64,000 nt of DNA, from contig CAVWEH010000002.1 in the NCBI GenBank assembly GCA_963753975.1, positions 608,001-672,000 of the forward strand, in the 5' to 3' direction. The position numbers and the translations under genes are program-made. Source of the DNA: an uncultured delta proteobacterium (lineage in GTDB: Bacteria > Desulfobacterota > Syntrophia > Syntrophales > Smithellaceae). This document shows, piece after piece, positions 3,901-24,569 of the stretch. The notes below the pieces were generated by a model. It had not been told where the DNA came from. It did no database searches and saw only the letters and a program-made list of their open reading frames with translations. Positions within the stretch are counted from its first letter, which is position 1. Each line of letters opens with the position of its first letter.

Positions 3901-3938
3901 TGGGGCGCTAAATTCATTTTGAGGGGTAAAATACCCCT
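3901..3938. promoter_or_regulatory. Putative enhancer (UAS) for the sigma54 activator
   Basis: Palindrome AGGGGTAAAATACCCCT (3922-3938) plus a degenerate GGGG half-site 21 bp away; same motif at 5481-5519. Confidence 0.6.
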
Positions 3939-3941
3939 AGG

Positions 3942-7475: not shown

Positions 7476-7504
7476 TGCGATATACTTTGCATAAGGAGGA
7501 CAAT

Positions 7505-7900: not shown

Positions 7901-7954
7901 AATCGAAAGACAAAAACCGTAACAAAAAGTCTCAAAGTTAGATCGGAGAATATT

Positions 7955-8926
7955 ATGGCAGAAAAACCCAAAGTGGCAATTTACTGGCTGACGGCCTGCG
8001 GCGGCTGCGACGAAGCAATTGTGGATCTGAACGAAGCGATACTCCTGGTTGCCGACGCGATTGATATCGTACTCTGGCCGGTCGCTATGGACTTCAAGTA
8101 TGAAAGCATCCGGAAGATGAAAAAGGGCGAGATAGCGCTGGCCATCCTGCATGGGGCTGTACGAAATTCAGAACAGGAAGAAATGGCTAAATTGCTGAGA
8201 GAAAAATCGCAGCTCGTGCTCGCTTTCGGCGCCTGTGCCTGCTTTGGAGGCACCCCGGGACTGGCGAATTTCCGGTCAAAAGAAGACATTTTCAACTGGG
8301 TCTATCGGGATGCGCCGACAGTGGTAAACCCGAAAAATAACCGGCCGCAGACCGTATTCTCAGTCAACGGGAACAAGCTGACCTTGCCGGAATTCTTTGA
8401 CCGGGTTCATCCGCTACGCGATATCATCGATGTGGACTATTACCTGCCGGGATGCCCGCCGCCGCCGGATCTTATTGCCAATGCAGTGTTTGCCGTCCTG
8501 GAAGGCAAGTTGCCCTCCAGGGGTGCCACGCTGGCACCGAGCAAGCCTCTATGCGACACCTGCTCCCGGAATCAATCCAAACCGCAAAAGATAGAAATCT
8601 CGGAATTTAAAAGGATACACGAAGTGGAAGCAAAGGATGATCTGTGTTTCCTGGCGCAGGGAATTATCTGCCTGGGACCGGCGATCCGTTCCGGCTGCGG
8701 CGAAACATGCATCAGGACGAATGTTCCCTGCCGGGGCTGCTTCGGTCCGGTTGATGGTGTGGACGATGCCGGCGCAAAATTTATCTCCGGGCTTGCTTCG
8801 CTCATCAGTGCGGAAACTGAAGAAGATGCGCAGAAAACCATCGACGGAATTGCTGATCTGGCCGGTTACTGCTACCGTTTCAGTCTCCCTTCCGCATCGC
8901 TGAAACATAAAAATAAGGAGAAGTAA
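7955..8926 (+). CDS. mvhG: [NiFe]-hydrogenase group 3c small subunit
   Basis: CGGCD, GACA, PGCPP, CDTC, CFLAQGIICLGP...C...CRGCFGP. Confidence 0.9.
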   Translation: MAEKPKVAIYWLTACGGCDEAIVDLNEAILLVADAIDIVLWPVAMDFKYESIRKMKKGEIALAILHGAVRNSEQEEMAKLLREKSQLVLAFGACACFGGTPGLANFRSKEDIFNWVYRDAPTVVNPKNNRPQTVFSVNGNKLTLPEFFDRVHPLRDIIDVDYYLPGCPPPPDLIANAVFAVLEGKLPSRGATLAPSKPLCDTCSRNQSKPQKIEISEFKRIHEVEAKDDLCFLAQGIICLGPAIRSGCGETCIRTNVPCRGCFGPVDGVDDAGAKFISGLASLISAETEEDAQKTIDGIADLAGYCYRFSLPSASLKHKNKEK

Positions 8927-8928
8927 AC

Positions 8929-10389
8929 ATGGCGCGAAAAATTACAATAGATCCCATTACCAGGTTGGAGGGGCATGGAAAAATAGAAATTCTTCTCGAC
9001 GAGAAAGGTGAGGTAACGGATGCCTTCTGGCAGGTTACTGAACTGCGTGGTTTTGAGCGCTTCTGCCTCGGCAGACCCGCGGAAGAGATGCCGAGAATCG
9101 TACCGAATATATGCGGGGTATGCCCTTCCGCGCACCATATGGCTGCCACCAAGGCCCTCGACGACCTCTACAATGTGGAGCCCACGCCTGCCGCACGGCT
9201 GATCAGGGAACTGGAATTTAACGCCTTCTATATTGAGGACCATTATATCCACTTTTTCTTCCTGGCCGCCCCCGACTTCGTCGTCGGTCCGGACGCCGAT
9301 CCAAAAGAGCGGAATATCCTTGGCGTCATCGGCAAAGTGGGGAAGGAAATAGGGCTGAAGGTCATTGAGGTCAGAAAAAGAAACCGGGATATCATACGGC
9401 ACATCTTCACCAAGGCGCCGCACCCGGAAGGCGGGCTCGCCGGTGGCGTACCGCGGGGATTTACCGAGCAGGACCGCAAATGGGTGAAAGATACCGCTGT
9501 ATTTTCTCTCGACTTCGCCAAGTTCGCCATTCAGCTATTCAAGGATGTCGTGCTGGCAAATAAGTCTTATGTGGCTCTGATCCTCAATGATGCCTACAAA
9601 CTGAAGACTTACTACATGGCCCTGGTGGATGAGAACGACCGGGCTACGTTTTACGACGGAGTGGTCAAAGTCATCGATCCGGAAGGCAAGGAATATGTGA
9701 GATTCGCCCCCCGGGACTACGATAAGTATATCGGCGAATGGGTGGAGCCGTGGACCTACATCAGGCTTAACCATTTAAGGCAGCTTGGCTGGCAGGGACT
9801 GAAGGAAGGAAACGGCACATCGCTCTACCGTGTCGCCCCCCTTGCTAGGCTTAACGTAGCCGATGCCATGCAAACCCCGCTGGCACAGAAGGAGGCGGAG
9901 ATCATGTTCGATACCCTGGGAGGAAAACCCGCTCATCAGACACTCGCCACCCACTGGGCGCGCCTCATCTGCGCGTTACAGGCGGCGGAAAACAACGTGA
10001 TCATCGCAGATGAACCTCAACTTACCAGCAAGGACATCCGAAACATGAACCTCAAACTGAGAAACAAAGGCGTAGGCTGCGTGGAAGCTCCCCGTGGAAC
10101 GCTCTTCCATCATTACGAAACCGACGATAAAGGCATCCTCACGAAGGTTAACCTCATCGTAGCCACGCAGAATAATGCCGCTCCCATCTGCCTGTCGGTA
10201 AAAAAGGCCGCCAAGGAATTCGTCCATGGCCCGGACGTGAAAGAGGGTTTCCTGAACATGGTGGAAATGGCCTTCAGGGCTTACGATCCTTGCCTCTCCT
10301 GCGCCACACACTCTCTGCCGGGGACAATGCCTCTGGATGTAAAGATCAGAGATCATGAAGGCAAAGTAATCAGGGAGATCAGCCGCTGA
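8929..10389 (+). CDS. mvhA: [NiFe]-hydrogenase group 3c large subunit
   Basis: DPITRLEGH, ELRGFE, L1 ICGVC, EAPRGTL, L2 DPCLSCATH plus a cleavable tail. Confidence 0.93.
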   Translation: MARKITIDPITRLEGHGKIEILLDEKGEVTDAFWQVTELRGFERFCLGRPAEEMPRIVPNICGVCPSAHHMAATKALDDLYNVEPTPAARLIRELEFNAFYIEDHYIHFFFLAAPDFVVGPDADPKERNILGVIGKVGKEIGLKVIEVRKRNRDIIRHIFTKAPHPEGGLAGGVPRGFTEQDRKWVKDTAVFSLDFAKFAIQLFKDVVLANKSYVALILNDAYKLKTYYMALVDENDRATFYDGVVKVIDPEGKEYVRFAPRDYDKYIGEWVEPWTYIRLNHLRQLGWQGLKEGNGTSLYRVAPLARLNVADAMQTPLAQKEAEIMFDTLGGKPAHQTLATHWARLICALQAAENNVIIADEPQLTSKDIRNMNLKLRNKGVGCVEAPRGTLFHHYETDDKGILTKVNLIVATQNNAAPICLSVKKAAKEFVHGPDVKEGFLNMVEMAFRAYDPCLSCATHSLPGTMPLDVKIRDHEGKVIREISR

Positions 10390-10399
10390 GAACAAATTT

Positions 10400-10915
10400 A
10401 TGAAAATACTTATCCTCGGTATGGGCAACCCCATCCTGTCAGACGACGGTGTGGGGTTATTGGCAGCAGAAAAGCTCCGGCACAGAATCCCCGGGGCGGA
10501 TGTGGCGTCAAGCGCCATGATTGGCCTTTCCCTCTTCGATCTGATTATCGGTTACGATGCGTTCTTTATCATCGATGCCATGACCACGCGGAACGGAAAA
10601 CCGGGAGAACTGAAAAAGATCGGCGAAGATGACCGGCACGGCACGCTGCATCTCTTCTCTTCCCACGGTCTGAATATCTTTGAACTGATGGAGCTCGGTG
10701 TTCGCTGTGGTTATGACATGCCCCGACTTTCGGCAGTTTATGGGATTGAAATAGGCAACGAAGTTGCCTTCGGTGAAACACTTTCGTCCTCGCTAAATGA
10801 GAAACTTCCCGCCATAGTCGAAGAAATCATCGACGACATAAACATTATCCTCTTCTCTTGGAAACAGATCAAAACGCCGAACTGCATCATGCTGCGTCAT
10901 TCCGAGAAGCGGTAG
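10400..10915 (+). CDS. Hydrogenase maturation protease
   Basis: LGMGNPILSDDGVG, IIDA, SSHG. Confidence 0.9.
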   Translation: MKILILGMGNPILSDDGVGLLAAEKLRHRIPGADVASSAMIGLSLFDLIIGYDAFFIIDAMTTRNGKPGELKKIGEDDRHGTLHLFSSHGLNIFELMELGVRCGYDMPRLSAVYGIEIGNEVAFGETLSSSLNEKLPAIVEEIIDDINIILFSWKQIKTPNCIMLRHSEKR

Positions 10916-10923: not shown

Positions 10924-12903
10924 TTATTTCCCATTGTATGCGGGTAAAGATATAATAAAACTCGTTCCAGCGTCCGGGTTGCGTTCCGCATCGATGGTGC
11001 CGTTGTGTTTTTGGATAATTCCGTACACGATGGAAAGTCCCAGTCCCGTTCCCTGACCTGGTTCCTTCGTCGTGAAGAATGGTTCAAAGATGTGAGAAAG
11101 GTGTTCCTCGTCTATCCCCTTACCCGTGTCTGATATGGAAATTCTGACGGAATTGTTCTTCTTACTCAACCCACTAGAAATCTTCAGCTTTCCGCCGCCT
11201 TTCATGGCATCGGCTGCGTTGATAAAAAGATTCAGGAAAACTTCTTCCAGTCTTGATCTGTCACACTTCACTTCGGGAAGATTTTCCGCAAGCTTGGCTT
11301 CGATTTCTATCCCGTGAAACATGGATTGGTCTCTGACCAGTTTGAGAGAGGTATTGATGACCTGATTTATCTGCAGAGGAAGCATTTCGCCTGTCGGCGC
11401 TCTCGCAAAATCCAGCAGACTATGCACAATTTCTTTACAGCGGTTCGTCTGATAGATGATCTTCTGCATATTTTCCCGTGCGGGGCTATCCTCCGGGATA
11501 TCTTCCAGGACGATGTTGCTGTACAGAAGAATTCCACCCAGTGGATTGTTGATTTCGTGGGCGACACCCGCCGCCATCTCACCGAGGGCAGTCAGTTTTT
11601 CGGTTTTTGCGAGTTGTTGATGCATTTTCTGCAATTGATCATTGTGGTCTTTGAGGGAGCTGGCCATGTCATTGAAGGCTGCATCCAGCATAGCAAAACC
11701 CGATATATTATCAGGCGCTAGTTTGTAGTCCAGGTTGCCGGAGGCGATGGCTTCCGTAGCCTTCTTGAGGATGCGTATTCTCTTGATGATGGTGTTACCC
11801 AAATAAAGAGAAATGATAAACGCTATAATCATTCCCAGAGTTGTTATTCCCAGGTTTATCCAGATCATTTCCTTTTGTATGTCCCGGTATTTGGCTTCGA
11901 GAATCCCTGTGTAAAGCACGCCGATGAGTTTTTTATCGATGTTAAAAATAGGGGTATAAGTGGTAATGTACCAGTCTTTCACAACAAAAGCCCTGCCCAC
12001 CCAGTCTTTCCCTTCCTTGATGACCCGGTCATAAACTTCTTTGGAAAGAATAGTGCCAATGGCCCTTTTGTTATCTTTTGTCATAACGTTGGTGGATATA
12101 CGCACACCCCCCTGAAATATAGTGGCCACGCCCATTTCCTGACCTTTGTATTTTTCGTCGTGATACACGGTCTCTTTAATCTTATCCACTATCTCATTGT
12201 CCTTATTAATCAGAACGCCTCCGACCAAAACGCCCAACAACATGTTACTGTTTCTATCCATTACCGGATATGCAACTTTCATGACCATGCCTTCCGAGAG
12301 TTTATCTTCCCTGATTTCGGCGGACAAAGGCGTTTTCACAATATCCATTTTCGCCCGGTCCGAAAGCGCGGGATTTTCTCTTACAATGTTTTTAATGGAC
12401 ATGAGTTCGGTTGAGGAGAGGGGGATTTTTTTTTCTATGCAGTTTTTGACGAGGGGATCCTTCAGAAGGCTGTCCCCTCTGATTGCCGGATTAGACGCCC
12501 TGTACAATACCTTCCCTCCGGCATCAACAAGCGTGAGCATATCAAGCAAAATATGGTCATTCCCAGGCTGTGCTCCTGTCCCGCTGCGGATGAGTGCTTT
12601 CATATAGGCCATGCCGGAGATATCATGCCTGTTGATAAGCTCATTCAGGTCGGACCCCTCGGCGGTAAACTGAATCAGGGACATAATTTTATCGAGCTTA
12701 TTATTATATATCAGCTTGGCCGTATTGATATCGAGGCGCACCCTGTCCTGCACCTCCGCAATAGTGTTCCTGTTGATTGTCCATATGCTGATAATGGTGG
12801 CAAAGATACCTGTAAGGCACGTGACAATCAGAAATCCAAACGCAAGACGGCTTTGTAAGTCCAACTTAAAAAGCCGCCGTATTTGTTTATTATTGATTTT
12901 CAT
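10924..12903 (-). CDS. Membrane sensor histidine kinase (periplasmic Cache-like, HAMP, HisKA, HATPase)
   Basis: Two TM helices, ATIFQGGVRISTNV Cache signature, AHEINNPL, PFFTTK, GTGLGL. Confidence 0.93.
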   Translation of the reverse strand: MKINNKQIRRLFKLDLQSRLAFGFLIVTCLTGIFATIISIWTINRNTIAEVQDRVRLDINTAKLIYNNKLDKIMSLIQFTAEGSDLNELINRHDISGMAYMKALIRSGTGAQPGNDHILLDMLTLVDAGGKVLYRASNPAIRGDSLLKDPLVKNCIEKKIPLSSTELMSIKNIVRENPALSDRAKMDIVKTPLSAEIREDKLSEGMVMKVAYPVMDRNSNMLLGVLVGGVLINKDNEIVDKIKETVYHDEKYKGQEMGVATIFQGGVRISTNVMTKDNKRAIGTILSKEVYDRVIKEGKDWVGRAFVVKDWYITTYTPIFNIDKKLIGVLYTGILEAKYRDIQKEMIWINLGITTLGMIIAFIISLYLGNTIIKRIRILKKATEAIASGNLDYKLAPDNISGFAMLDAAFNDMASSLKDHNDQLQKMHQQLAKTEKLTALGEMAAGVAHEINNPLGGILLYSNIVLEDIPEDSPARENMQKIIYQTNRCKEIVHSLLDFARAPTGEMLPLQINQVINTSLKLVRDQSMFHGIEIEAKLAENLPEVKCDRSRLEEVFLNLFINAADAMKGGGKLKISSGLSKKNNSVRISISDTGKGIDEEHLSHIFEPFFTTKEPGQGTGLGLSIVYGIIQKHNGTIDAERNPDAGTSFIISLPAYNGK

Positions 12904-13308: not shown

Positions 13309-13668
13309 TTGAAACTGCGTGAAGTAAAAGAAATACTCAAAGCCGATGTAATTGTCGGCAAAGAAAATTTAGATATGGAAGTCAAAACAGCGTTTGGAGC
13401 CGATTTGATGAGTGACGTTCTGGCCTTCGCGAAAGCGGGCAGTCTTTTGCTAACCGGGCTCACCAATACGCAGGTCATCAGAATCGCCAATGTTCTGGAC
13501 ATTGCCGCTATAATTTTAGTTAGAGGGAAAAAGCCGACGGCAGAAACTATGGATCTGGCCAAAAAACTTCAAATTCCCATTTTAACGACAAAATATATTC
13601 TATTTGAAACGGCGGGGCGTCTTTACGCCAAAGGTATCGTTGGTTGCCTGGAAAAAGTTGAAAATTAA
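13309..13668 (+). CDS. DRTGG-domain protein
   Basis: GADLMSDVLA, LLLTGL, VRGK; TTG start with GAGGAG SD. Confidence 0.85.
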   Translation: MKLREVKEILKADVIVGKENLDMEVKTAFGADLMSDVLAFAKAGSLLLTGLTNTQVIRIANVLDIAAIILVRGKKPTAETMDLAKKLQIPILTTKYILFETAGRLYAKGIVGCLEKVEN

Positions 13669-13669
13669 A

Positions 13670-14107
13670 GTGTGCGCAACTGAAAGTGCTTTATATAAGA
13701 ATAGTTTTTATATTGAAGGCGGTAATTTTAGCGATGCGGGGACTGTTTCCACCCGTATAAAATCGATCCTCAAACAAATGGGGTTACCCAACGACATCGT
13801 TAGGAAATCAGCCATTATTTGTTATGAAGCGGAAATTAATATCGTTTCTTATGCGAGAAAAGGAAAAATCAATCTTACAGTCACTCCCAAGACTGTCGAA
13901 ATTGAGGTAGTTGACGAAGGACCGGGAATACCCGATATTGAATTAGCAATGCAGGAAGGATATTCCACGGCGAGCCAGCAAATAAGAGAAATGGGTTTTG
14001 GCGCCGGTATGGGACTACATAACATCAAAAGCTATTCCGATACATTCAACATCTCGTCAGAAGTGGCCAAAGGAACTTTCTTGAAAATGATTATTAACAC
14101 CCAATAA
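13670..14107 (+). CDS. Anti-sigma-factor-like Ser/Thr kinase (HATPase_c)
   Basis: YEAEIN, DEGPGI, GYSTAS...EMGFGAGMGL; GTG start right after the previous stop. Confidence 0.85.
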   Translation: MCATESALYKNSFYIEGGNFSDAGTVSTRIKSILKQMGLPNDIVRKSAIICYEAEINIVSYARKGKINLTVTPKTVEIEVVDEGPGIPDIELAMQEGYSTASQQIREMGFGAGMGLHNIKSYSDTFNISSEVAKGTFLKMIINTQ

Positions 14108-14124
14108 CACCCTCAAGGTTTATC

Positions 14125-14466
14125 ATGGATATTGAAACTATTGTTAAAAAATTTAATTTAAAAGTAAGGTCTGCGTCAGACAGACTTAAGAATAATGTCA
14201 CAGGAGGTTACACGGGAGATCTCTTAAGCGATGTAATGGCAAATTCTCACGAGGGAGATATCTGGATAACAAGACAGGTGCACCAAAATATAGTTGCCAT
14301 AGCCACGTTGAAAGAACATGCTGGTATAATTCTGGTTAATTCCTGCGAACCGGCCAGGGAAACGCTGGAAAAAGCCGCTCAAGAAAACGTGCCCATCATG
14401 GTTTCCAACTTGTCCGCGTTCGAGCTGACGGGCAAAATTTACAACTTGCTGGCAGAAAAAAAATAG
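14125..14466 (+). CDS. DRTGG-domain protein
   Basis: GGYTGDLLSDVMA, IWITRQ.HQNIVAIA. Confidence 0.85.
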   Translation: MDIETIVKKFNLKVRSASDRLKNNVTGGYTGDLLSDVMANSHEGDIWITRQVHQNIVAIATLKEHAGIILVNSCEPARETLEKAAQENVPIMVSNLSAFELTGKIYNLLAEKK

Positions 14467-14537
14467 TCGCAGATGTATCGGCTTTTTATTAGAGCCGTCT
14501 GCCTATGGCCATTTTTGGTTAATTCCGAAAAAAGACG

Positions 14538-15278
14538 ATGCTTAAAGTTTTTTATTGTGATTTCCATATTCACACTTGCCTATCGCCTTGCGCCGATCTG
14601 GATATGCACCCCCAAGCCCTGGTAGAAAAAGCCCTCGCAGCAAAACTCGATATCATCGCTATCTGCGATCACAACTCTTCCGAAAACGTACCTTATGTTA
14701 TCAAGGCGGCGGAAGGAAAAAATCTAAAAATATTGCCGGGAATGGAAATAACGACAAGCGAAGAAGTGCATCTCATCGCCATTTTTAATTCCTTGTCCGA
14801 TCTGGCGGCGCTGCAAGTGCTTGTGTATCAACACTTGGCGGGTACAAACGATGAGCAAAAGTTCGGTGTTCAGGCGATTGTCAACGAGAAGGGCGAAGTG
14901 GAAGGAATAAACGATAAATTATTAATCGGCGCCACCGATCTTCCGTTAAATGAATTATTGAATTATTTACATGAACTGAACGGATTGGCCGTAGCGGCGC
15001 ATATTGACAGGGAAAGCTTCAGCGTTTTGAGCCAACTGGGCTTCATCGATGAAAAGACGCATTTTGACGCATTGGAGATAACAGCGGCAACAGGATTTGC
15101 ACAGGCAAGGGTCAAATATAAAGAATTGAGTAATTATTCTTTTATCGTGTCGTCCGATGCCCACTTTTTGAAAGACATCGGGAAGGCGGCAACGAAAATT
15201 GTCCTTGAGGAGCCGACCTTCGCCGAATTGAAAATGGCCTTCGCCGGACAAAAAGGCCGTCACATTCTGGAGCAATAA
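14538..15278 (+). CDS. PHP-domain phosphoesterase
   Basis: DFHIHTCLSPC, CDHN, GMEITT.EEVH, AHIDR, SDAH. Confidence 0.9.
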   Translation: MLKVFYCDFHIHTCLSPCADLDMHPQALVEKALAAKLDIIAICDHNSSENVPYVIKAAEGKNLKILPGMEITTSEEVHLIAIFNSLSDLAALQVLVYQHLAGTNDEQKFGVQAIVNEKGEVEGINDKLLIGATDLPLNELLNYLHELNGLAVAAHIDRESFSVLSQLGFIDEKTHFDALEITAATGFAQARVKYKELSNYSFIVSSDAHFLKDIGKAATKIVLEEPTFAELKMAFAGQKGRHILEQ

Positions 15279-15826
15279 TGCTGGAGCTTGCCGAGCACAT
15301 TCTCGACATTGCCGAAAACTCCGTTCGCGCCGGTGCCAAGATAGTGGAAATTGTCATCAACGAGGATTCGGCAAAAGATTTGCTCACTATTGAAATCAAC
15401 GATAACGGCAGTGGAATGACAAAAGAAGAAATTAAAAAAGTTGAAGATCCGTTTTATACGACAAAAACCGTGCGGCGGGTGGGATTGGGAATTCCTCTAC
15501 TGGCCAACGCCGTCGCAATGGCCGGCGGCTCTCTCAGCCTGAAATCCGCAAAAGGAAAGGGAACCAAACTTACAGCGACCTTTCAACTCAGTCATTTAGA
15601 CAGGCAACCCCTGGGAAATATTACGACGACAATGCTGACTCTTATTGCCGGAAATTCAGATATTGACTTTATTTACAAACATAGGCATAGTGACCGGCGG
15701 TTCATATTGGACACGCGTCAGATACGTAAAGAAATCGAGGATGTACCCATTAATCATCCTGAAATAATTAAGTATATTCGGGGCGTTATTGACGAAGGAC
15801 TTCGCGAAATAAAACCTACGGCCTGA
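15278..15826 (+). CDS. HATPase_c (histidine-kinase-like) protein of hydrogenase operons
   Basis: ELAEHILDIAENS, DNGSGM, DPFYTTK, GLGIP, HLDRQPLG. Confidence 0.88.
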   Translation: MLELAEHILDIAENSVRAGAKIVEIVINEDSAKDLLTIEINDNGSGMTKEEIKKVEDPFYTTKTVRRVGLGIPLLANAVAMAGGSLSLKSAKGKGTKLTATFQLSHLDRQPLGNITTTMLTLIAGNSDIDFIYKHRHSDRRFILDTRQIRKEIEDVPINHPEIIKYIRGVIDEGLREIKPTA

Positions 15827-15850
15827 CTCACCCGACAATCGAGGAGGAAT

Positions 15851-16349
15851 TTGATGAAAGCGGAAGATAATGAACTTTTAAATGATTTTACACCGGAACA
15901 GGTAGCCGAACTCGACAAAATTATCACGCAAGCACAAAGGCAAACCCGGCGGATTGATTCCGGTGCTGGAAGAAGCGCAAGTGGCTCTGGAATACCTGCC
16001 CATGTCCGTGCAAAAAAAGATTGCCCAAGAATTGAATTTGCCTTTGAGCCGTGTTTACGGCGTTGTCACCTTTTATTCATTCTTCACCATGACACCGCGC
16101 GGTAAGCACACTGTCCGTGTTTGCCTGGGCACAGCTTGTTATGTCCGCGGCGGTAAAGCCATTAAGGAAACTCTCGAGAAAGAATTCGGCATTAAAGAGG
16201 GCGAAACCACTCCGGATAGAATGTTCACACTGGAAACAATCCGCTGTTTGGGCGCCTGCGGCCTGGGGCCTGTGGTTGTTGTGGATGAAGATGTGCATGG
16301 CCGGATGAAGCCATCCAAAATCAAGGAAATGATGGTTCAATATAGATAG
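15851..16349 (+). CDS. NuoE/HydC-like [2Fe-2S] subunit (apparent +1 frameshift near 15927)
   Basis: Joining frames gives ...DKII-x-KHKGKPGGLIPVLEEAQ...; CLGTAC and CLGAC motifs. Confidence 0.88.
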
Positions 16350-16388
16350 CGCATTTTTTGCAAGCAAAAAAAATAGGAGGAAACGCCG

Positions 16389-16772
16389 ATGGCGAAATTA
16401 ACTATAGATGATTTAAAAAAAATAAAAGAAAAAGTGCATAAGGAAATGTCTCTGCGGGACGGCGATCGCCGCGTCAAAGTTACAGTTCATATGGGAACCT
16501 GCGGTATCGCTTCCGGCGCCAAAGAGGTCATGGATACACTATTGCAGGAAATTGAGGCCGCCGGCGCGAATGACGTTGTCGTAACCACTTCGGGCTGTAT
16601 GGGATTATGCAGCCGCGAACCTCTGGTTACCGTGGAAGTATTAAACCAGGAACCGATAAAGTACGAATATATGAACCCCAACAAAATGAGGCAGGTGTTT
16701 AAAAGGCACATTTTGGCGGGAGAAATTCAGACGCCCTTTGTTCTGGCAAAAGGCGCTGAAGTAATCAAATGA
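16389..16772 (+). CDS. Thioredoxin-like [2Fe-2S] ferredoxin (HndB/HydD-like)
   Basis: MGTCGIASGA, SGCMGLCSREP. Confidence 0.88.
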   Translation: MAKLTIDDLKKIKEKVHKEMSLRDGDRRVKVTVHMGTCGIASGAKEVMDTLLQEIEAAGANDVVVTTSGCMGLCSREPLVTVEVLNQEPIKYEYMNPNKMRQVFKRHILAGEIQTPFVLAKGAEVIK

Positions 16773-16837
16773 TTTTTTCGCCTATCATGCTTTAGATGCT
16801 GAATGCATGATAATTTCTCAAGGAGGATGTAGGCTAA

Positions 16838-19800
16838 ATGAAGGTTTTTCGTTCACACTTATTGATCTGCGGAGGCACGGGTTGTCAATCTTCCGGCAGT
16901 CATGCCGTAAAAACAGCTTTGTTGGAAGAGGTCGATAAAAGGGGATTGGCTGAAGAAATAAAGATTGTGGAAACAGGTTGTAACGGTTTTTGCGCTTTGG
17001 GTCCCATTATGGTTGTTTACCCCGAAGGCGTCATTTACGTATCTTTAAAGCCGGAAGATATCCCGCAATTAGTCGAAGAACACTTAATCAAAGGAAGGGT
17101 CTTAAAACGGCTTTTATACAGAGAACCCGTTACCGATCAGATTATTCCTACAATGCAGGATATTCCCTTTTTTGCTCTTCAGGAATTGCGGGTGTTGCGG
17201 AACCGCGGATTAATTGATCCCGAAAAAATAGATGAATATATCGCCCGTGACGGTTACGCCGGTATGGCCAAAGCGCTTACGGAAATGACCCCGGAGCAAA
17301 TTATTCAAGAAATTCTTAATTCCGGTTTACGCGGGCGCGGCGGAGCGGGATTTCCCACTGGACTGAAATGGAAGTTTGCCTCCCAGTCCAAAGGTGATGT
17401 TAAATATGTTTTGTGCAACGCCGACGAAGGCGACCCGGGCGCTTTCATGGATAGAAGCGTGCTGGAAGCAGATCCTCACGCCGTCCTGGAAGGAATGGTC
17501 ATCGCGGCCAAAGCCATCGGCTCTCATCACGGATACATTTATTGCCGCGCTGAGTATCCCTTGGCCATTCACCGTTTAAATGTCGCCATTGCCCAGGCCA
17601 AAGAAGCCGGATTACTAGGCAAAGATATCTTGGGCACGGGTTTTGATTTTGATCTGGAGATTTACCAGGGAGCCGGCGCTTTTGTCTGCGGTGAGGAAAC
17701 AGCGCTGATGACTTCCATTGAAGGAAAAAGAGGCATGCCGCGGCCGAGACCACCCTTCCCCGCCGTTGCCGGACTTTGGCAAAAGCCCAGCATCCTGAAT
17801 AACGTGGAAACTCTGGCTAATATCGGCCAGATTATTTTACGCGGCGCCAAGTGGTATGCTTCTGTGGGCACGGAAAAAAGCAAAGGAACAAAGGTTTTTG
17901 CTCTTACCGGAGATGTCGCCAATGTCGGTCTGGTGGAAGTTCCTATGGGAACGACATTAGGCACCATCGTTTATGATATCGGCGGCGGAATCCCCAAGGG
18001 GAAAAAATTCAAGGCCGCTCAGTTGGGTGGTCCTTCCGGCGGTTGTATTCCCGTGCAGCACCTGAACGCGCCCGTAGATTATGAAAAGGTTGTTGAACTC
18101 GGCGCGATTATGGGTTCCGGCGGCTTGATCGTCATGAACGAAGACAAGTGCGCGGTAGATATGGCGCGCTTTTTTATGGATTTCTGTCAGGATGAATCCT
18201 GCGGCAAATGCACTCCCTGCCGTGAGGGAACAAAACGCATGCTGGATATTTTAACCAATATCACTCTGGCTAAAGGCAAAGAAGGAGATATCGAGCTTCT
18301 CGAAGAAATGGCCGGAGTTATCAAAAATGCAGCTTTATGCGGTCTGGGTCAAACCGCGCCTAACCCGGTACTGAGCACCATTCGTTATTTCCGCAAAGAG
18401 TACGAGGAACATATACGCGAACATCGCTGCCGTGCCGCTGTTTGTTCGGCAATGTTTAAATCTCCCTGCCAGCATACCTGCCCCATTGGCATGGATATAC
18501 CTTCTTATATTGCTCTTGTCAGGGCGGGAAGATTCGATGACGCTTATAAAATATTGCTCTTGACCAACCCCTTCCCGTCTGTTTGCGGAAGAGTCTGCGA
18601 CCATAAGTGCCAGAGCAAGTGCCGCCGCGGCAATCTGGACGAACCTATAGCCATCAAATTTCTGAAAAGATTTATCACGGATAATGCCGGCCGCCCGAAA
18701 ATTGAGCTGGTGCCGCAAACGAGAAAAGAAAAGATCGCCGTGGTGGGAGCAGGTCCGGCTGGACTTACCGCTGCGCGCGACTTGGCTTTAAGAGGTTATA
18801 AGGTAACGGTTTTTGAGGAGCTTCCCCAGCCGGGAGGAATGATGTACTGGGGCATTCCTTCTTATCGCCTGCCCCGTAAAGTATTGGATAAAGAAATCGA
18901 CGACATCCGGGCACTGGGTGTCGAAATCCGTTTGAATACGCGCGTCGGCAAAGATATTACGTTTGCCAAACTGGAAAAAGATTTTCATTATGTTTATCTT
19001 GCCTCGGGAGCGCATAAGAGCCAGAAGATGAATGTCCCCGGCGAGGATTTGAAAAATGTTTTTGGCGGCGTGGAGTTCCTGCGCGATTTTAACGCCAATG
19101 AGGATAAATGGTTAAAAGGCAAAAGCAAGCTGGGTAAAAAAGTTGCTGTTATCGGCGGCGGTAATTCCGCCATCGATGCCGCCCGCATTGCCGTGCGTCT
19201 GGGAGCGGATGTAACGATTCTTTACCGCCGCTTAAGGCAGGATATGCCCGCGGCACCGGAAGAAATCAAAGCCGCCGAAGAAGAAGGAATCAAGATTGAA
19301 TATCTCATTGCCCCGTTAAAAATTGAAGGCACTAAAGAAAAAGTCGGCTCTATTACCTGCCAGCGCATGGTTCTGGGCGACTTTGACTCGAGCGGCCGTA
19401 AAAAACCGGCCGCAATTGCCGGCTCAGAATTTACCTTAAAGGTCGATTCCGTTATCGCCGCCATCGGCCAGATTCCCGATATGAGTTTTATTGATAAAAA
19501 AACCGGCATTACAATAAACAAACGGGATTGTTTTGATGTAGGTAATGACTATAAATCACGCACACCTAACCCCCGCTACTTCGCGGGCGGTGACGCCGTA
19601 ACCGGCCCGGATACCGTAATTGCCGCCATTGCCGCGGGACATCAAGCGGCAGACGATATAGATTCAGCTATCCGCAAGGCCAACAATGAGCCGGCTTATG
19701 AAAAACCGGTGCCGGAAAAAATTGATGTGCCCCTGGTTATTGATGAAGAAACGGTTGAAGCAATCCAAATGATAATGCCGGAAATATCGGACTCTAAACG

Positions 19801-19894
19801 TAAAATGAGTTTTGCGGAAGTGGAATTAGGTTTCAAGAAAGCGGACGCCATTAAAGAAGCATCGCGTTGTTTACGCTGTGACGCTGAATTATAA
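16838..19894 (+). CDS. NuoF/HydB-like FMN subunit fused to a GltD-like FAD/NADP(H) domain
   Basis: N-terminal CGGTGC/GCNGFC, GRGGAGFPTG, NADEGDPGAFMDR, ESCGKCTPCREG, then SPCQHTCP, CGRVC..CQSKC, GAGPAG, GGGNSAID..LYRR, RCLRC. Confidence 0.92.
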   Translation: MKVFRSHLLICGGTGCQSSGSHAVKTALLEEVDKRGLAEEIKIVETGCNGFCALGPIMVVYPEGVIYVSLKPEDIPQLVEEHLIKGRVLKRLLYREPVTDQIIPTMQDIPFFALQELRVLRNRGLIDPEKIDEYIARDGYAGMAKALTEMTPEQIIQEILNSGLRGRGGAGFPTGLKWKFASQSKGDVKYVLCNADEGDPGAFMDRSVLEADPHAVLEGMVIAAKAIGSHHGYIYCRAEYPLAIHRLNVAIAQAKEAGLLGKDILGTGFDFDLEIYQGAGAFVCGEETALMTSIEGKRGMPRPRPPFPAVAGLWQKPSILNNVETLANIGQIILRGAKWYASVGTEKSKGTKVFALTGDVANVGLVEVPMGTTLGTIVYDIGGGIPKGKKFKAAQLGGPSGGCIPVQHLNAPVDYEKVVELGAIMGSGGLIVMNEDKCAVDMARFFMDFCQDESCGKCTPCREGTKRMLDILTNITLAKGKEGDIELLEEMAGVIKNAALCGLGQTAPNPVLSTIRYFRKEYEEHIREHRCRAAVCSAMFKSPCQHTCPIGMDIPSYIALVRAGRFDDAYKILLLTNPFPSVCGRVCDHKCQSKCRRGNLDEPIAIKFLKRFITDNAGRPKIELVPQTRKEKIAVVGAGPAGLTAARDLALRGYKVTVFEELPQPGGMMYWGIPSYRLPRKVLDKEIDDIRALGVEIRLNTRVGKDITFAKLEKDFHYVYLASGAHKSQKMNVPGEDLKNVFGGVEFLRDFNANEDKWLKGKSKLGKKVAVIGGGNSAIDAARIAVRLGADVTILYRRLRQDMPAAPEEIKAAEEEGIKIEYLIAPLKIEGTKEKVGSITCQRMVLGDFDSSGRKKPAAIAGSEFTLKVDSVIAAIGQIPDMSFIDKKTGITINKRDCFDVGNDYKSRTPNPRYFAGGDAVTGPDTVIAAIAAGHQAADDIDSAIRKANNEPAYEKPVPEKIDVPLVIDEETVEAIQMIMPEISDSKRKMSFAEVELGFKKADAIKEASRCLRCDAEL

Positions 19895-19935
19895 ATCTTA
19901 TGTGAGCTTATTAAATATTTTGCAAGGAGCAGGAA

Positions 19936-21723
19936 ATGGAGAAAAAAGTACCTTTAACAATAGATGGAAAAAAAGTGGAAGCTTTTGCGGGCCAAACCAT
20001 TTTAGAATGTGCCAATGAAAACGGCATTTTTATCCCCACGCTTTGTAACCATCCTGCACTCTCTCCTATTGGGGCTTGCCGGATGTGTCTGGTAGAAATA
20101 AAAGGGCAACGTAATTTGCAGACCTCGTGTACATTTCCTGTAACCGATGGAATGGAAATACAAACTGATTCCAAGGCGGTAATTGATGCCCGCAAGCTGG
20201 TTCTGGATATGATCTTTTCGGAAAGAAATCATTTTTGTCCCTATTGTGAGATGAGCGGCAATTGCGAGTTGCAGGATCTCGGTTACCGTTATCGCGTTGA
20301 TCACTGGGTATTCCCCACTTATACGAAAGCTTTTCCACTGGATGCCACCCATAAATACTACCTGATGGAACACAACCGGTGCGTCCTTTGCGAAAGATGC
20401 ATTCGTGCCTGCGATGAGCTTGTGGCTAATCACACCCTGGGTTTAAGACAGCGGGGAAGTGAGAGTATGGTTCACGCCGACGGCAATATTCCGCTCGGTG
20501 AATCTACCTGCATATCCTGCGGCACCTGTACTCAGGTTTGTCCAACGGGAGCTCTATTTTACAAAAGAAGCGCTTTTATGGGCAAAGACAGCGTGACTAA
20601 ACAAGTAAAAAGCACCTGCAATCAATGCAGCATCGGCTGTGGTACGGAAATTGTAACACGCGGCGGAAATGTTCTCTGCATTATGGGCGATTGGGATGCT
20701 CCGGTTAATAAAGGGCTACTTTGCAAAATGGGCCGTTTTGAACCCTTATATGACAGCCGCCAGAGACTGACCAAGCCCCTTTTACGCACTAAAGGGAAGT
20801 TCGAAGAAATAAGCTGGGAAAAAGCAATCCAGACGCTGGCCAAGCAGATTAACACAATCAAAGCTCCGGAAATAGGCGTGCTTGCCGGCAGTTATTCCTC
20901 CAACGAAGCACTTTATTTGATTAAAAAATTATTCAAGCAGGAATTGCACGTCTCCAATATCGGTCTCATCAATATGGCGGCACCCAGGATTTTCAACAAA
21001 GCTCAGAGTAAACTGGAAGATATTGCCCAAAGCGATATTATTCTTGTCATCGGTTCCGATCCGCTAAATGACCAGCCGGTCGCTTCCTTCATCATTAAGC
21101 GCGCCGTAGACAAGGGAGCAAGACTTATTGTAGTTGATGATAAGAAAAATGGTTTGGCTCCGTTTGCCTTCCTGAATATCGCTATGGCCGATATAAGCAA
21201 AGCAATGGAAGTTGCCAAAAGAGCCAATAATCCGTTTATTCTTTACGGCGCCAGTATTACCAAACCGGCCCTAGCCGAGCTCAAGAAACTGGAAGATAAA
21301 GCAAAATACATCATCGTCGAATCGGGCGTCAATACCGTAGCGGCAGCGGCATTGGGATTAAATAACGGTTATGATCCCGCCTCCCTCAAACTTGTATATG
21401 TCTTACTGGGTGAGCAAAATTACGCGGGCGACGATCTATTCAAAAAAATTCCTCAAAATGCATTTATCGTGGCACAGGCAAGCTATTTATCGCCTCTCAC
21501 AGAGAGGGCAGACCTTGTGTTACCTGCGGCAATCTGGTCGGAACAAACGAGCAGCTTGACCAATATCGAAGGAAGGATACAGAGTATGAATCGCGCGGTG
21601 GAACCTTTAGGCGATGCTAAACCGGATTGGGAAGCATTGCAATTATTATCAATACAACTGGGCAAGGATATTTCCGTGTCTATAAATGAAGCTTCAGCTG
21701 AAGTGATCAAGTCTCTTAAATGA
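19936..21723 (+). CDS. NuoG/HydA-like Fe-S subunit with a molybdopterin-oxidoreductase-like scaffold and no H-cluster
   Basis: PTLC..GACRMC..TSC, HFCPYC..C, two CxxCxxCxxxC, CNQCSIGC..LC, DLVLPAA..E..TNIEGR; no FeFe H-cluster motifs. Confidence 0.85.
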   Translation: MEKKVPLTIDGKKVEAFAGQTILECANENGIFIPTLCNHPALSPIGACRMCLVEIKGQRNLQTSCTFPVTDGMEIQTDSKAVIDARKLVLDMIFSERNHFCPYCEMSGNCELQDLGYRYRVDHWVFPTYTKAFPLDATHKYYLMEHNRCVLCERCIRACDELVANHTLGLRQRGSESMVHADGNIPLGESTCISCGTCTQVCPTGALFYKRSAFMGKDSVTKQVKSTCNQCSIGCGTEIVTRGGNVLCIMGDWDAPVNKGLLCKMGRFEPLYDSRQRLTKPLLRTKGKFEEISWEKAIQTLAKQINTIKAPEIGVLAGSYSSNEALYLIKKLFKQELHVSNIGLINMAAPRIFNKAQSKLEDIAQSDIILVIGSDPLNDQPVASFIIKRAVDKGARLIVVDDKKNGLAPFAFLNIAMADISKAMEVAKRANNPFILYGASITKPALAELKKLEDKAKYIIVESGVNTVAAAALGLNNGYDPASLKLVYVLLGEQNYAGDDLFKKIPQNAFIVAQASYLSPLTERADLVLPAAIWSEQTSSLTNIEGRIQSMNRAVEPLGDAKPDWEALQLLSIQLGKDISVSINEASAEVIKSLK

Positions 21724-21737
21724 AAGGAGAAGCCTAG

Positions 21738-22283
21738 ATGGCAAAAGTCAAGATAGCGACAGACTGGTTAGCAGGCTGCGCCGGATGTCATATGTCGTTA
21801 CTGGATATTGATGAGCGTATTGTAGGGCTATCGGAATTGGTTGAATTTACGTCAAGTCCGATAACAGACCTCAAGCATCCGCCTAAATCAGGCGTAACCG
21901 TGGGTATTCTGGAAGGAGCTATCTGCAACACTCACAATATTGAAGTCGCCAAGCAAATGCGCGAACGCTGCGATATCCTCATTGCAGTTGGCGACTGCGC
22001 AACATTCGGCGGTGTTCCGGCCATGCGTAATCTGGTGGGTACTGATGTGGCCTTAAAGCGTGCGTATCTGGAAACGGAAAGCACTGTTGATGGAGTTATT
22101 CCGGATTCTTTGGAGCTGGGAAGGCCTCTGGATTTTGTCGTGGGAGTTGACAAAATCGTCAAAGTTGATCTGTTCATTCCGGGTTGTCCGCCGAGGGCGG
22201 ATGCATTTTATTATGCCTTAACGGAGTTGCTTGCGGGTCGCACACCGGTAATATTGCCGCCCGAAGTATTTACATATGATTAG
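21738..22283 (+). CDS. hoxY: [NiFe]-hydrogenase small subunit, single-cluster HoxY/HydS type
   Basis: GCAGCH, GDCA, PGCPP; only 181 aa. Confidence 0.85.
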   Translation: MAKVKIATDWLAGCAGCHMSLLDIDERIVGLSELVEFTSSPITDLKHPPKSGVTVGILEGAICNTHNIEVAKQMRERCDILIAVGDCATFGGVPAMRNLVGTDVALKRAYLETESTVDGVIPDSLELGRPLDFVVGVDKIVKVDLFIPGCPPRADAFYYALTELLAGRTPVILPPEVFTYD

Positions 22284-22295
22284 AGGAGAACATTT

Positions 22296-23724
22296 ATGGG
22301 TCGGAAGATAACTATTGAACCTGTAACACGTATTGAAGGCCACGGACGTGTAACAATACATCTGGATGATCAAGGTGCGGTGGAACAAACTTTTTTCCAC
22401 GTTGACGAATTCCGTGGTCTGGAAAAATTCTGCGAAGGGCGTCCGTATTATGAAATGCCGCAAATTACACAACGCATATGCGGAATCTGCCCGATCAGCC
22501 ATCACCTGGCAGCGTGCTAAAGCCGGGGATGCAATTTCTCGTGTCGAGCCTCCGCGTCCGGCCAAATTATTGCGCGAGTTGATGCACATGGGACAGGTTG
22601 TTCAGTCGCACGGCATGCATTTTTTTCATCTGGCGGCGCCGGATCTGCTCTTTGGCTTTGATGCGGATCCCGCAACGCGTAATGTTTTCAGAATAATTAA
22701 GGAAAATCCAAAACTGGCACTGAAGGCCGTGAACATGCGCCGCTATGGTCAACAGATCATAGAGCGGCTGGGCGGAAAACGCGTTCATGCGAATTTTGCG
22801 GTTCCCGGCGGAGTCAATGCTCCATTGACTGAAGAAAATCGTAAAGCCATAGCATCCGAACTAAAGACGATGACTGCAACAGCTCAGGAGGCGATAAGCA
22901 TAGCTAAAGGCTGGCTCGAAGCCAATCAGGAAACGGCAGCAACTTTTGCCTCTTTTCCTTCCAGTTATATGGGGCTGGTGGATGCCGAAGGAGGTCTGCA
23001 GCTGTATGACGGTGAAATTCGCGTGAAAGACGCGCAAGGCAATTTTCTGGCTCAGTTTAAGCCGGAGCACTATCTATCTTTTATTGCCGAACACGTTGAA
23101 CGGTGGTCCTTTTTGAAGTATCCTTACCTGCGTAAGATGGGCTTTCCCCAGGGTTTCTATCGCGTTGGACCATTGGGCAGACTGAATGTCATTGATAAAA
23201 TCGGCACACCCCTGGCGCAGGAAGAATTCAAACTCTTCCGACAAATCAATAGCGGCATGCCTGTAGAAGGTTCTCTGTACTATCACTACGCGCGTATGAT
23301 TGAAGCTCTTTATGGTGTGGAACGTATTGGCCAGTTACTGGATGATCCGGATATTATGTCCAACAATGTTCGCGCCTATCCGCCGCTTTCGCAGGTTCCT
23401 AGTCAGGGTGTGGGTGTCATTGAAGCACCTCGCGGAACGCTTTTCCATGACTACAGCACAGATGAAAACGGTGTTTTGACCAGAGTTAATCTTATTGTGG
23501 CCACCGGCAATAATAATTGGGCCATGCATACTGCAGCCGGAGCCGTGGCTAAAGCTTGTGTTGACGGCACAAGATTGACTGAAGGAATGCTAAACAGAGT
23601 GGAGGCGGCTATTCGTTGCTATGACCCCTGTTTGTCGTGTTCCACGCATGCCTTAGGCAAAATGCCGCTGGAAGTTACATTGCTCGCGGCAGATGGCACC
23701 GTTCTTGATCGCATCAGCCGTTAA
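22296..23724 (+). CDS. hoxH: [NiFe]-hydrogenase large subunit, HoxH/HydL type (apparent +1 frameshift near 22515)
   Basis: [10 protein letters not shown]1 RICGIC; removing one base continues HHLA-x-AKAGD...; EAPRGTL, L2 DPCLSCSTH. Confidence 0.88.
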
Positions 23725-23790
23725 TAACGGTTATGAACTCCAAAACAAGTTTTGGAAACCACTTCCCGGAATTGGAGTTTCACGAATAAA
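23724..23790 (+). repeat. Internally deleted copy of the modular intergenic element
   Basis: Left-end-like ATAACGGTTATGAACTCCAAAACAAGTTTTGGAAAC joined to the right end CGGAATTGGAGTTTCACGAATAAA. Confidence 0.7.
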
Positions 23791-23804
23791 TACAAATAAT
23801 TTTC

Positions 23805-23842
23805 CAGGCGGATAAGTGTGATGCTTACCCGCCTGTTTTTTT
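23805..23842 (+). terminator. Intrinsic terminator after hoxH
   Basis: CAGGCGGATAAG-loop-CTTACCCGCCTG followed by T7. Confidence 0.75.
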
Positions 23843-23847
23843 CTGAA

Positions 23848-24074
23848 AAATCACGGGTATGAACCTCAAAGCAAGCAAGCTTTGGAAACAAATTCCGCAG
23901 CAAGCTGCGGGGTATTAAACCCTCCGCTTCGCGGGATAATTTCCAATAGCCTTTGGCTATTGGATAGTTCGACTTACAAATTTCATTCTGCTGCGCTTAT
24001 GAAATTTGAGTCTCACTACAACTAACGCTTCCTATAGTCAGCGAGTCTCATTAAATTGGAGTTTCACCAATAAA
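23848..24074 (+). repeat. Full copy of the modular intergenic element
   Basis: First 90 bp match 39151-39236 (2 substitutions, one 4-nt indel); then hairpin modules; ends AATTGGAGTTTCACCAATAAA. Confidence 0.9.
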
Positions 24075-24569
24075 ATGGATTCCAAAACTATTATCATTGG
24101 ATATGGCAATATAGACCGCGCAGACGACGGCGTTGCCTTTGCCGTAATAAATGAGCTGCGCCGTCAACTGGGCCAGAAAATGCTGGAAGAGGGTGATACC
24201 GGTTTGGACGAGCTAAATTCCGAAAATGATTCAATTTTTCTATCCCAGCTGGTACCGGAAATTATGGAACTGCTCACGGGCTATAATAGAATAATGTTTG
24301 TTGATGCTCATGTTGGTGCTGATACGGAAGACTTCAACTGTTCACCGGTTCTGGCACAATACACTTCTTCTTCATTTACCCATCATATGACGCCGTCCAC
24401 ACTTTTGGCATTTCTCCAGACTATGTATCAGTGCGAACCGGAAGCGCATTTAATCTCCATACGCGGTTACGATTTTGATTTTAAGAGAACCCTTTCGCCT
24501 AAGGTGCGGGCGCTTGTGCAACCGGCAGTGAAGGCCATTTTGAAATTGATGAATCAATCACGGGTATGA
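24075..24569 (+). CDS. Hydrogenase maturation protease (HoxW-like)
   Basis: IIGYGNIDRADDGVA, QLVPE, FVDA, THH; ATG at 24075. Confidence 0.85.
   Translation: MDSKTIIIGYGNIDRADDGVAFAVINELRRQLGQKMLEEGDTGLDELNSENDSIFLSQLVPEIMELLTGYNRIMFVDAHVGADTEDFNCSPVLAQYTSSSFTHHMTPSTLLAFLQTMYQCEPEAHLISIRGYDFDFKRTLSPKVRALVQPAVKAILKLMNQSRV

Follow-up and report, generated by a model that had tools for sequence, protein, structure and literature searches.

A GltD-type module in the place of the C-terminal ferredoxin domain of HydB in a [NiFe]-hydrogenase operon of the Syntrophales

A 64,000-nucleotide stretch of the genome of an uncultured member of the Smithellaceae (GenBank assembly GCA_963753975.1, contig CAVWEH010000002.1, positions 608,001 to 672,000; hereafter the window) contains an operon in which the flavin subunit HydB is fused to a GltD-type module. 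The genes of the operon point to a cytoplasmic, multimeric [NiFe]-hydrogenase of the same design as NiFe-HydABCSL of Acetomicrobium mobile, with an HndB-like protein as an extra subunit and a protease. On balance we lean slightly towards the reading that this NiFe-HydABCSL-like complex links H2, NAD(H) and NADP(H), probably by confurcation that is independent of ferredoxin. The two frameshifts in the deposited operon are most likely assembly errors. While the parts belong to known families, the placement of GltD on BfuB, where it replaces the ferredoxin domain, was not found in the accessible parts of the literature and is not represented in the PDB. The host is described as a peat-type syntrophic bacterium, its genome comprises 2.43 Mb in 6 contigs and is 95% complete, and the top protein matches of the window genes carry the names Smithella or Smithellaceae.

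The N-terminal half of the fusion is a HydB protein. Over residues 1-542, its alignment with HydB from A. mobile is gap-free and keeps the same numbering (7t2r_B, E = 3e-243), and the Pfam domains along the fusion are Complex1_51K (161-329), NADH_4Fe-4S (441-525), Fer4_20 (529-617) and Pyr_redox_2 (632-934). The features of bifurcating HydB that had been quoted in the preliminary description of this DNA, namely an N-terminal [2Fe-2S] site, GDPGAFMDR, GGPSGG and a Cys/His site, could all be located. The motifs are CGGTGC (11-16), CNGFC (48-52), NADEGDPGAFMDR (194-206), GGPSGG (397-402), DKCAVD (436-441), CGKCTPC (455-461) and EEHIREHRCRAAVC (523-536), and the residues assigned to the B2, B1 and B5 clusters and to the FMN/NADH site are given in Table 1. 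At least 90% of 40 aligned sequences share H525 and C531 of B5. In canonical BfuB proteins, such as the 614-amino-acid BfuB encoded elsewhere in the same genome and the protein P0128, B5 is followed by CxxCxxCxxxCP...CxxCxxCxxxC, whereas in the fusion the segment SPCQHTCP and a full GltD module follow seven residues past the last B5 cysteine. No Fer4 dicluster (B3/B4), which is expected in the Bfu family, was found after fusion residue 540. The alignment with canonical BfuB bears out the claim that a GltD domain stands in place of the C-terminal 2x[4Fe-4S] of HydB, with the swap directly after residue ~540.

The GltD module comprises residues ~541-1018, and among solved structures it is closest to the GltD inserts of 9bov_A, 9n5u_A and 8oh5_C (StnC/NfnA; E = 5e-107 to 2e-94), with NfnB/NfnL ranking next. 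The module is circularly permuted in that the opening of canonical GltD/NfnB ("...FxEVxLGY...EAxRCLxC") forms the last 40 residues, with RCLRC at 1010-1014, and positions 2-30 of the Fer4_20 profile match the C-terminus of the fusion. This permutation is shared with the GltD inserts of Bfu-type transhydrogenases, as in StnC. Eight cysteines are present for two [4Fe-4S] clusters (544, 548, 583/587, 591, 595, 1011 and 1014), of which C544, C548, C591 and C595 are invariant in the 40 aligned sequences. The residue K610 (FLKRF, 608-612) is located at the position of K170 in StnC, which according to PMC10482914 is a cluster ligand, the corresponding residue in NfnB being a glutamate. An FAD motif, GAGPAG, is placed at 637-642, and a second nucleotide motif, GGGNSA (773-778), fits the pattern GxGxxA that was read as NADP(H)-type by Kremp et al. 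(PMC7483475). Further downstream, the fusion contains LYRR at 795-798, and YRR (796-798) is conserved in close relatives. We take the arginine pair of this motif to be a mark of NADPH specificity. By its motifs, the GltD module is complete and of the Stn type, with two [4Fe-4S] clusters, an FAD site and an NADPH-type site, in agreement with the GltD domain (GGGNSAID..LYRR) noted previously, since the GltD inserts of StnC and NfnA are its nearest relatives of solved structure and the FAD and NADPH motifs are conserved.

A structure prediction had been proposed as a check, and AlphaFold2, run on the 40-sequence alignment, gave a mean predicted local distance difference test score of 90.6 and a predicted template modelling score of 0.85. 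With such high scores, the two halves of the fusion are predicted to form one defined body. No PDB chain that covers both halves was found with Foldseek (best TMq 0.52), nor was an NCBIfam model that spans the whole fusion, and the two half-models scored under their cut-offs.

The other subunits named in the preliminary description, together with the 1018-residue NuoF-GltD protein itself, were recovered on the (+) strand by Pfam and NCBIfam, namely NuoE, a thioredoxin-like protein, a NuoG-like protein, HoxY and HoxH (Table 1), here called HydC, HndB-like, HydA, HydS and HydL. A pattern-based scan of GTDB, in which each species was represented by one genome, gave 350 confirmed relatives, and the best 80 of the 350 were taken for locus counts. 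HydC is most similar to 7t2r_C (E = 2.4e-43) and contains four cysteines (57, 62, 98 and 102 of the C-terminal fragment) that correspond to the C1 [2Fe-2S] site of BfuC/NuoE-like proteins. The HndB-like protein has three cysteines only (38, 70 and 74), and its best PDB matches are to StnB/NfnB (8oh5_B, E = 1.4e-12), the degenerate N-terminal domain of which it resembles; its gene is present in 79 of the 80 related loci. HydA, with a best PDB match to 7t2r_A (E = 1.3e-93), contains the Pfam domains Fer2_4, NADH-G_4Fe-4S_3, a Fer4 dicluster, Molybdop_Fe4S4 and Molybdopterin. Pfam found no Fe_hyd_lg_C domain in its 595 residues, and no Pyr_redox or Fer4_20 domain, the GltD module being located on HydB instead. 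HydL is closest to its counterpart in A. mobile (7t2r_D, E = 6.9e-135). With respect to the HydDB [NiFe] subgroups 3c and 3d, it has an intermediate position between VhuA/MvhA-like proteins (NF041785, 3e-96; 5odc_F, 3e-88) and the NAD-reducing soluble hydrogenase (5xf9_D, 7e-95). The operon thus combines an H-cluster-less, NuoG-like HydA with small and large [NiFe] subunits, as is characteristic of NiFe-HydABCSL. An assignment to group 3d Hox (HoxEFUYH) was rejected, as the HoxE model scored 162.2 bits against a cut-off of 224, and the HoxU model scored 238.2 against a cut-off of 333 and spans only residues 6-218 of the 595-residue HydA.

Among solved structures, the enzyme from A. mobile (NiFe-Bfu; 7t2r/7t30) comes closest to HydB(1-542), HydA, HydC and HydL. 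In both complexes, a NuoG-like HydA that lacks the H-cluster supplies a BfuBC core, and both have the B1, B2, B5 and FMN sites. However, HydB of A. mobile ends in B3/B4 and reduces ferredoxin, whereas the HydB of the window has GltD at this place. The window operon also encodes the additional HndB-like subunit, and its HydA is shorter (595 versus 692 amino acids). The likeness to Stn/NfnABC (Nfn-Bfu; 8oh5, 9bov, 9n5u) lies in the BfuBC-type core combined with a GltD module for NADPH and FAD, in the same circular permutation and in the lysine at the proximal cluster. In those complexes, GltD is inserted into BfuA, where it supplies the entry at mid-potential, and B3/B4 of BfuB are retained for ferredoxin. 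In the window complex, by contrast, GltD is located on BfuB at the position of B3/B4, and BfuA carries the hydrogenase. The complex also differs from NfnAB (NfnSL), in that a lysine replaces the glutamate ligand and no NfnA-like gene was found by Pfam in the operon or among the upstream genes. The gene order of HndABCD in Solidesulfovibrio fructosivorans (NuoE-like, small thioredoxin-fold subunit, NuoF-like, catalytic subunit) is the same as in the window, and the HndB-like subunit is shared. However, the catalytic subunit of Hnd is of the FeFe type and HndC is canonical with C-terminal clusters; the homologies of the Hnd subunits are mentioned in PMC7483475, and the enzyme bifurcates to NAD+ and ferredoxin according to PMC10084766.

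Two genes of the operon are interrupted in the deposited sequence, with one extra base each in hydC (near 15929-15932) and hydL (near 22514-22516), so that hydC is read in two frames at 15851-16105 and 15954-16349, and hydL at 22296-22520 and 22366-23724. Both are 1-nucleotide insertions relative to the loci L001 and L002, and neither is placed in a homopolymer. In an 11-kb alignment with the closest relative, L001 (92% nucleotide identity), they are the sole intragenic single-base indels; the remaining indels are intergenic, apart from one in-frame difference of 6 nucleotides. When the hydC stretch was compared with other loci, exactly one gap was seen in 54 of the 60 alignments listed. We also compared contigs with a likeness of at least 90%, assembled from one RNA-library run and from three runs of DNA; these contigs represent relatives, not the source. 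The extra base in hydC was absent from every covering contig, and that in hydL was absent from all covering depth in X4, X5 and X15 and from 2.9 of 5.9 in X1. No sequencing run that matched the source was found, the best one sharing 0.17 of the words.

Gene breakage was examined with 108 long open reading frames (ORFs) from 177 kb of a relative (G001), 79 of which matched this genome at an identity of at least 80%. In this genome, 67 of the 79 were intact, 10 were frame-split (~13%, some of them three times) and 2 were partial. Of the 76 matches in the reciprocal comparison, 71 were intact and 4 partial, and the single split one is an artefact of its position at the edge of a locus. The assembly is thus rich in isolated 1-nucleotide insertions, and its gene calls need frameshift-aware handling. 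Two insertions in 8.7 kb match what is expected from the assembly-wide breakage rate. The alternative, that both frameshifts are real, pseudogenising mutations and that the operon is dead in this organism, could draw on the presence of both insertions in the deposited sequence, on their location outside homopolymers and on the lack of source reads against which to check them. However, similar insertions break 10 of 79 long genes relative to a 92%-identical relative, as compared to about 0 of 76 in the reciprocal direction, CstA is also split into at least four ORFs, and the rest of the operon consists of intact genes with 93-99% identity to those of L001. We therefore regard a dead operon as improbable and the frameshifts in hydC and hydL as very probable assembly errors; the operon is real and intact by design. 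The preliminary description had made its proposal dependent on the frameshifts being errors, which is supported by the relatives that lack the extra bases and by the ~13% of similarly broken genes. Other examples of such breakage in the assembly are C2:702920-708819 and C5:734560-736343, and genes of the RND type contain three shifts each.

To learn how widespread the fusion is, we consider its relatives within and beyond the Smithellaceae. The best 80 relatives show 78-96% identity and all derive from metagenome-assembled genomes, the titles of which are mostly Smithella, Smithellaceae, Syntrophaceae, Syntrophales or Deltaproteobacteria, with few other names. A junction-spanning query of 227 amino acids (fusion residues 475-701) was searched against a sample of 301 Syntrophales genomes and matched 296 of them at E ≤ 1e-40, and in ~225 of the 301 the best E-value was ≤ 1e-100 (hand count). 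Among the 150 matches listed, which represent ~148 genomes, all span the junction at 78-100% identity, and most frames are 1014-1071 amino acids long, with some shorter ones down to 530. The HydC-HndB-HydB::GltD module thus occurs in the large majority of the Syntrophales genomes sampled and is order-wide, which, together with the varied catalytic genes downstream of it, is new compared to the preliminary description, and it is this order-wide HydB::GltD module that carries the wider significance. At the level of 50%-identity clusters, at least nine further full-length fusions were identified at 34-55% identity, and in the more distant fusions the FMN and B1 motifs are degenerate while the junction is unchanged. 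The distant NuoF-GltD fusions with degenerate FMN and B1 motifs include P0123, P0126, P0136, P0139, P0150, P0174 and P0201 (34-43% identity); some distant fusions are named Desulfobaccales. From their sequences, they possibly represent a separate lineage that does not bind NADH.

The class of the downstream gene could be assigned, with Pfam checks, in 79 of the 80 related loci. The fusion is followed by an FeFe HydA in 35 of the 79 (31 of them also with HydF), by FeFe HydA plus FdhA in one, by HydF only in three, by a selenocysteine-type FdhA in 10 and by NiFe HydA-S-L in two. No catalytic gene was found within 2-7 kb downstream of the fusion in 19 loci, and another nine have less than 1.5 kb of sequence left. 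Even close relatives differ, as L001, in which the fusion is 96% identical, contains the NiFe cassette, whereas L002 (95%) contains FdhA. The gene next to the fusion in L023 is yaaH, which in the window comes directly after the hydrogenase operon. This suggests that catalytic cassettes are exchanged at one locus between close relatives. Individual arrangements behind the module include FdhA-Sec in L002, no cassette in L020 and L023, FeFe plus FdhA in L063 and a tandem of FeFe and NiFe in L104. Full-length HydL at an identity of at least 70% is encoded by 58 of the 300 other genomes of the sample. Among 20 NiFe cassettes that were fetched, six are located just downstream of the module, one of those behind an FeFe HydA, and 14 are located elsewhere, with the fusion module at another place in the genomes checked. 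The unusual part of the operon, the fusion module, is therefore not specific to the NiFe operon of the window, and is mostly paired with an FeFe hydrogenase or a formate dehydrogenase.

In Bfu enzymes, as described in PMC12018979, a mid-potential donor feeds B1/FMN and the hydride at FMN is taken by NAD+, while low-potential electrons exit from C1 via B3/B4 to ferredoxin, which docks between the C-terminal domain of BfuC and the ferredoxin-like domain of BfuB. From the sequence of the fusion, one can read which cofactor sites are present and in what order they follow each other. In the mechanism that we propose, the electrons from H2 would enter via HydL, HydS and HydA to B1/FMN, and FMN would exchange a hydride with NAD(H). 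As the GltD module starts from the point where the absent B3/B4 domain would be anchored, we infer that the GltD clusters may take over this branch, so that C1 would lead to the GltD clusters, FAD and NADP(H) in place of B3/B4 and ferredoxin. The complex would thereby link H2 with both NAD(H) and NADP(H) and have no site dedicated to ferredoxin, and in a syntroph it would most likely work in the H2-forming direction by co-oxidising NADH and NADPH in a confurcation reaction.

It could instead be argued that ferredoxin is still a substrate that docks on the [4Fe-4S] clusters of GltD as it does on NfnB, in which case the complex would be a hydrogenase fused to an Nfn-like transhydrogenase. The two [4Fe-4S] clusters of the GltD-like subunit in NfnAB are indeed the route for ferredoxin according to PMC10482914, and the genome encodes a ferredoxin-producing Por-Bfu cluster. 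However, the module is of the Stn type, being permuted and having the lysine ligand, and in StnC the GltD FAD is described in the same source as a non-bifurcating entry for NADPH and the clusters as an internal wire. Moreover, the operon contains no NfnA-like partner, and the NfnA of this genome adjoins an unpermuted NfnB of its own. We consider a ferredoxin site on GltD to be quite unlikely.

A stronger, though still rather unlikely, alternative to the proposed confurcation is an uncoupled enzyme with dual cofactors, in which the core is non-bifurcating, GltD is an independent entry for NADPH and the hydrogenase depends on NAD(P)H but not on ferredoxin, with transhydrogenase activity between FMN and FAD as a side reaction. 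Such a function is suggested by the non-bifurcating homologues that lack B2-B5 and by HydB of Syntrophomonas wolfei, which lacks B3/B4 (PMC9304861), as well as by the use in syntrophs of ferredoxin-independent NADH hydrogenases at less than 60 Pa H2 (PMC7311640). The Stn-like environment of the GltD FAD, with lysine rather than glutamate, would agree with a plain electron-transfer flavin, and stand-alone modules without a catalytic neighbour exist. The non-bifurcating HydAB(C) enzymes of Syntrophus aciditrophicus and S. wolfei likewise come from syntrophs and have a flavin subunit without B3/B4, and the window complex would share their independence of ferredoxin. However, as described in PMC9304861, these enzymes also lack B2 and B5, have no GltD module and are of the FeFe type, whereas the fusion has B2, B5 and a GDPGAFMDR segment identical to those of the bifurcating HydB of A. 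mobile, and 75 of the 80 related loci have retained HydC together with its C1 cysteines. The retention of B2, B5 and HydC argues weakly against an uncoupled enzyme.

Returning to the proposed link between H2, NAD(H) and NADP(H) by confurcation, several points weigh against it. The loss of B3/B4 marks the non-bifurcating HydB in S. wolfei, and by analogy the coupling may have been lost rather than redirected. The preference for NADPH over NADH is read from motifs, that is, GxGxxA and the presumed role of the arginine pair. The frameshifts were judged from the contigs of relatives and from the breakage rate, and are hence not proven errors. Finally, 19 of the 79 loci have no adjacent catalytic gene and 14 of the 20 NiFe cassettes are located away from the module, which implies that the module is not tied to the NiFe hydrogenase and may serve a separate function.

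With physiological potentials of -280 mV for NAD, -380 mV for NADP and -500 mV for ferredoxin (Schut et al., PMC9304861), and with E(H+/H2) = -414 - 29.6 log10(pH2/bar) mV, the calculated H2 ceiling is ~145 Pa for NADH plus NADPH and ~3 Pa for NADH alone. The genome encodes a canonical NfnAB pair with an unpermuted NfnB (G000:C1:254453-256694) and a complete membrane transhydrogenase, PntA1-PntA2-PntB (G000:C5:49722-52642), and no match to the RnfD/E family was found in the 95%-complete genome. This gene content fits a route centred on NADPH but does not prove one. The Por-Bfu-type cluster at G000:C5:728074-734166 (L089 4074-10166) encodes subunits of a 2-oxoacid:ferredoxin oxidoreductase, a BfuC, the 614-amino-acid BfuB, which keeps its C-terminal 2x[4Fe-4S], and a Fer4 protein. 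A broader hypothesis, which we put forward tentatively and with more doubt than confidence, is that HydC-HndB-HydB::GltD is a universal, ferredoxin-free confurcation "plug" of the Syntrophales that pools NADH and NADPH for an FeFe, NiFe or formate dehydrogenase cassette. Proton-driven PntAB would then raise the electrons of NADH to the level of NADPH, and the module together with PntAB would replace the reverse electron transport via Rnf and ferredoxin in syntrophic production of H2 or formate.

It is an old open question how syntrophs, working at the limit of thermodynamics, dispose of the electrons of NADH as H2 or formate, and whether reduced ferredoxin and reverse electron transport are required for this. 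If the proposed function is correct, the design may allow such microbes to form H2 from NADH and NADPH without ferredoxin. As a natural variant of the Bfu core in which the exit to ferredoxin is swapped for an NADP(H) module, the fusion is a testable candidate for ferredoxin-independent confurcation of NADH and NADPH, and a natural experiment on the destination of the low-potential branch of Bfu enzymes. Metabolic models that call these genes "bifurcating HydABC", "NuoF" or "Hox" would assign the wrong electron carriers.

The precedents cited in the preliminary description, namely bifurcation to NAD+ and ferredoxin in Acetomicrobium and a GltD domain on the NuoG-like subunit of Sporomusa Stn, match the accessible parts of the respective papers. 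In agreement with its remark that the architecture is not known to be biochemically characterised, no described or characterised BfuB::GltD (NuoF/HydB-GltD) enzyme was found in the accessible parts of the literature. According to Schut et al. (PMC9304861), NiFe-Bfu is placed in a small sub-clade of Synergistetes and in Halorhabdus; GltD or fusions are not mentioned in the portions of the text that were accessible, although the clade tables of that paper may list such proteins. Proteins of this kind may have been encountered by the authors of HydDB, as is hinted at by their rule "GltD ... but not NuoF". An analogous arrangement has been predicted for HdrA of ANME-1, which is likewise a bifurcating flavoprotein and where a ferredoxin domain is interrupted by an NfnB-like NADPH module (10.1101/2021.09.25.461819). 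However, this protein belongs to the HdrA family, is FAD-based and archaeal, and is uncharacterised.

Table 1. Genes of the hydrogenase operon (window coordinates) and cofactor sites of the HydB half of the fusion (fusion residues).
Feature	Position	Strand	Basis
DRTGG gene	13309-13668	+	Pfam
HATPase-like gene	13604-14107	+	Pfam
DRTGG gene	14125-14466	+	Pfam
PHP gene	14538-15278	+	Pfam
HATPase_c gene	15278-15826	+	Pfam
hydC (NuoE/BfuC-like, [2Fe-2S] C1 site)	15854-16349	+	PF01257, E = 1.7e-48; split by 1-nt insertion
hndB-like, thioredoxin-fold protein, 127 aa	16389-16772	+	PDB match to N-terminal domains of StnB/NfnB
hydB::gltD fusion, 1018 aa	16838-19894	+	Pfam, PDB alignment, AlphaFold2
hydA, NuoG-like Fe-S subunit, 595 aa, without H-cluster	19936-21723	+	Pfam; 7t2r_A
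hydS, NiFe small subunit (HoxY/MvhG-like), 181 aa	21738-22283	+	PF01058, E = 2.7e-28
hydL, NiFe large subunit	22296-23724	+	RICGIC and DPCLSC motifs; 7t2r_D; split by 1-nt insertion
Intergenic spacer hydL/protease, dispersed short repeat	23725-24005	.	50 blastn matches in genome
Hydrogenase maturation endopeptidase	24006-24569	+	TIGR00072, E = 2.3e-16
B2 N-terminal [2Fe-2S]	C11, C16, C48, C52 of fusion		motif/alignment
FMN/NADH motifs	GRGGAGFPTG 166-175, NADEGDPGAFMDR 194-206 of fusion		motif/alignment
B1 [4Fe-4S]	C455, C458, C461, C501 of fusion		motif/alignment
B5 (Cys3His)	C438, H525, C531, C536 of fusion		motif/alignment

All genes at 13309-24569 are co-directional, the order being five accessory genes, hydC, hndB-like, hydB::gltD, hydA, hydS, hydL and the protease gene. 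The five accessory genes (DRTGG, HATPase-like, DRTGG, PHP and HATPase_c) are located upstream of the fusion in 56-66 of the 80 related loci. At the spacer between hydL and the protease gene, the metagenome contigs have a very high summed depth and many joints. A second operon for a cytoplasmic NiFe hydrogenase is located at 5676-10915 (+) and encodes a GltD/NfnB-like protein, MvhD, MvhG, MvhA and a protease. The product of its first gene has 599 amino acids and a C-terminal 2x[4Fe-4S], with best PDB matches to 9n5u_A and 5jca_L, and both hydrogenases of the window are thus tied to a GltD-type NADP(H) module. Genes for sensor kinases and response regulators are placed beside and between the two hydrogenase operons, at 10924-12903 (-) and 1-5306, and a sigma-54 activator is encoded at 3942-5306. 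It is possible that the sensor kinase and response-regulator genes provide regulation by H2 or redox state.

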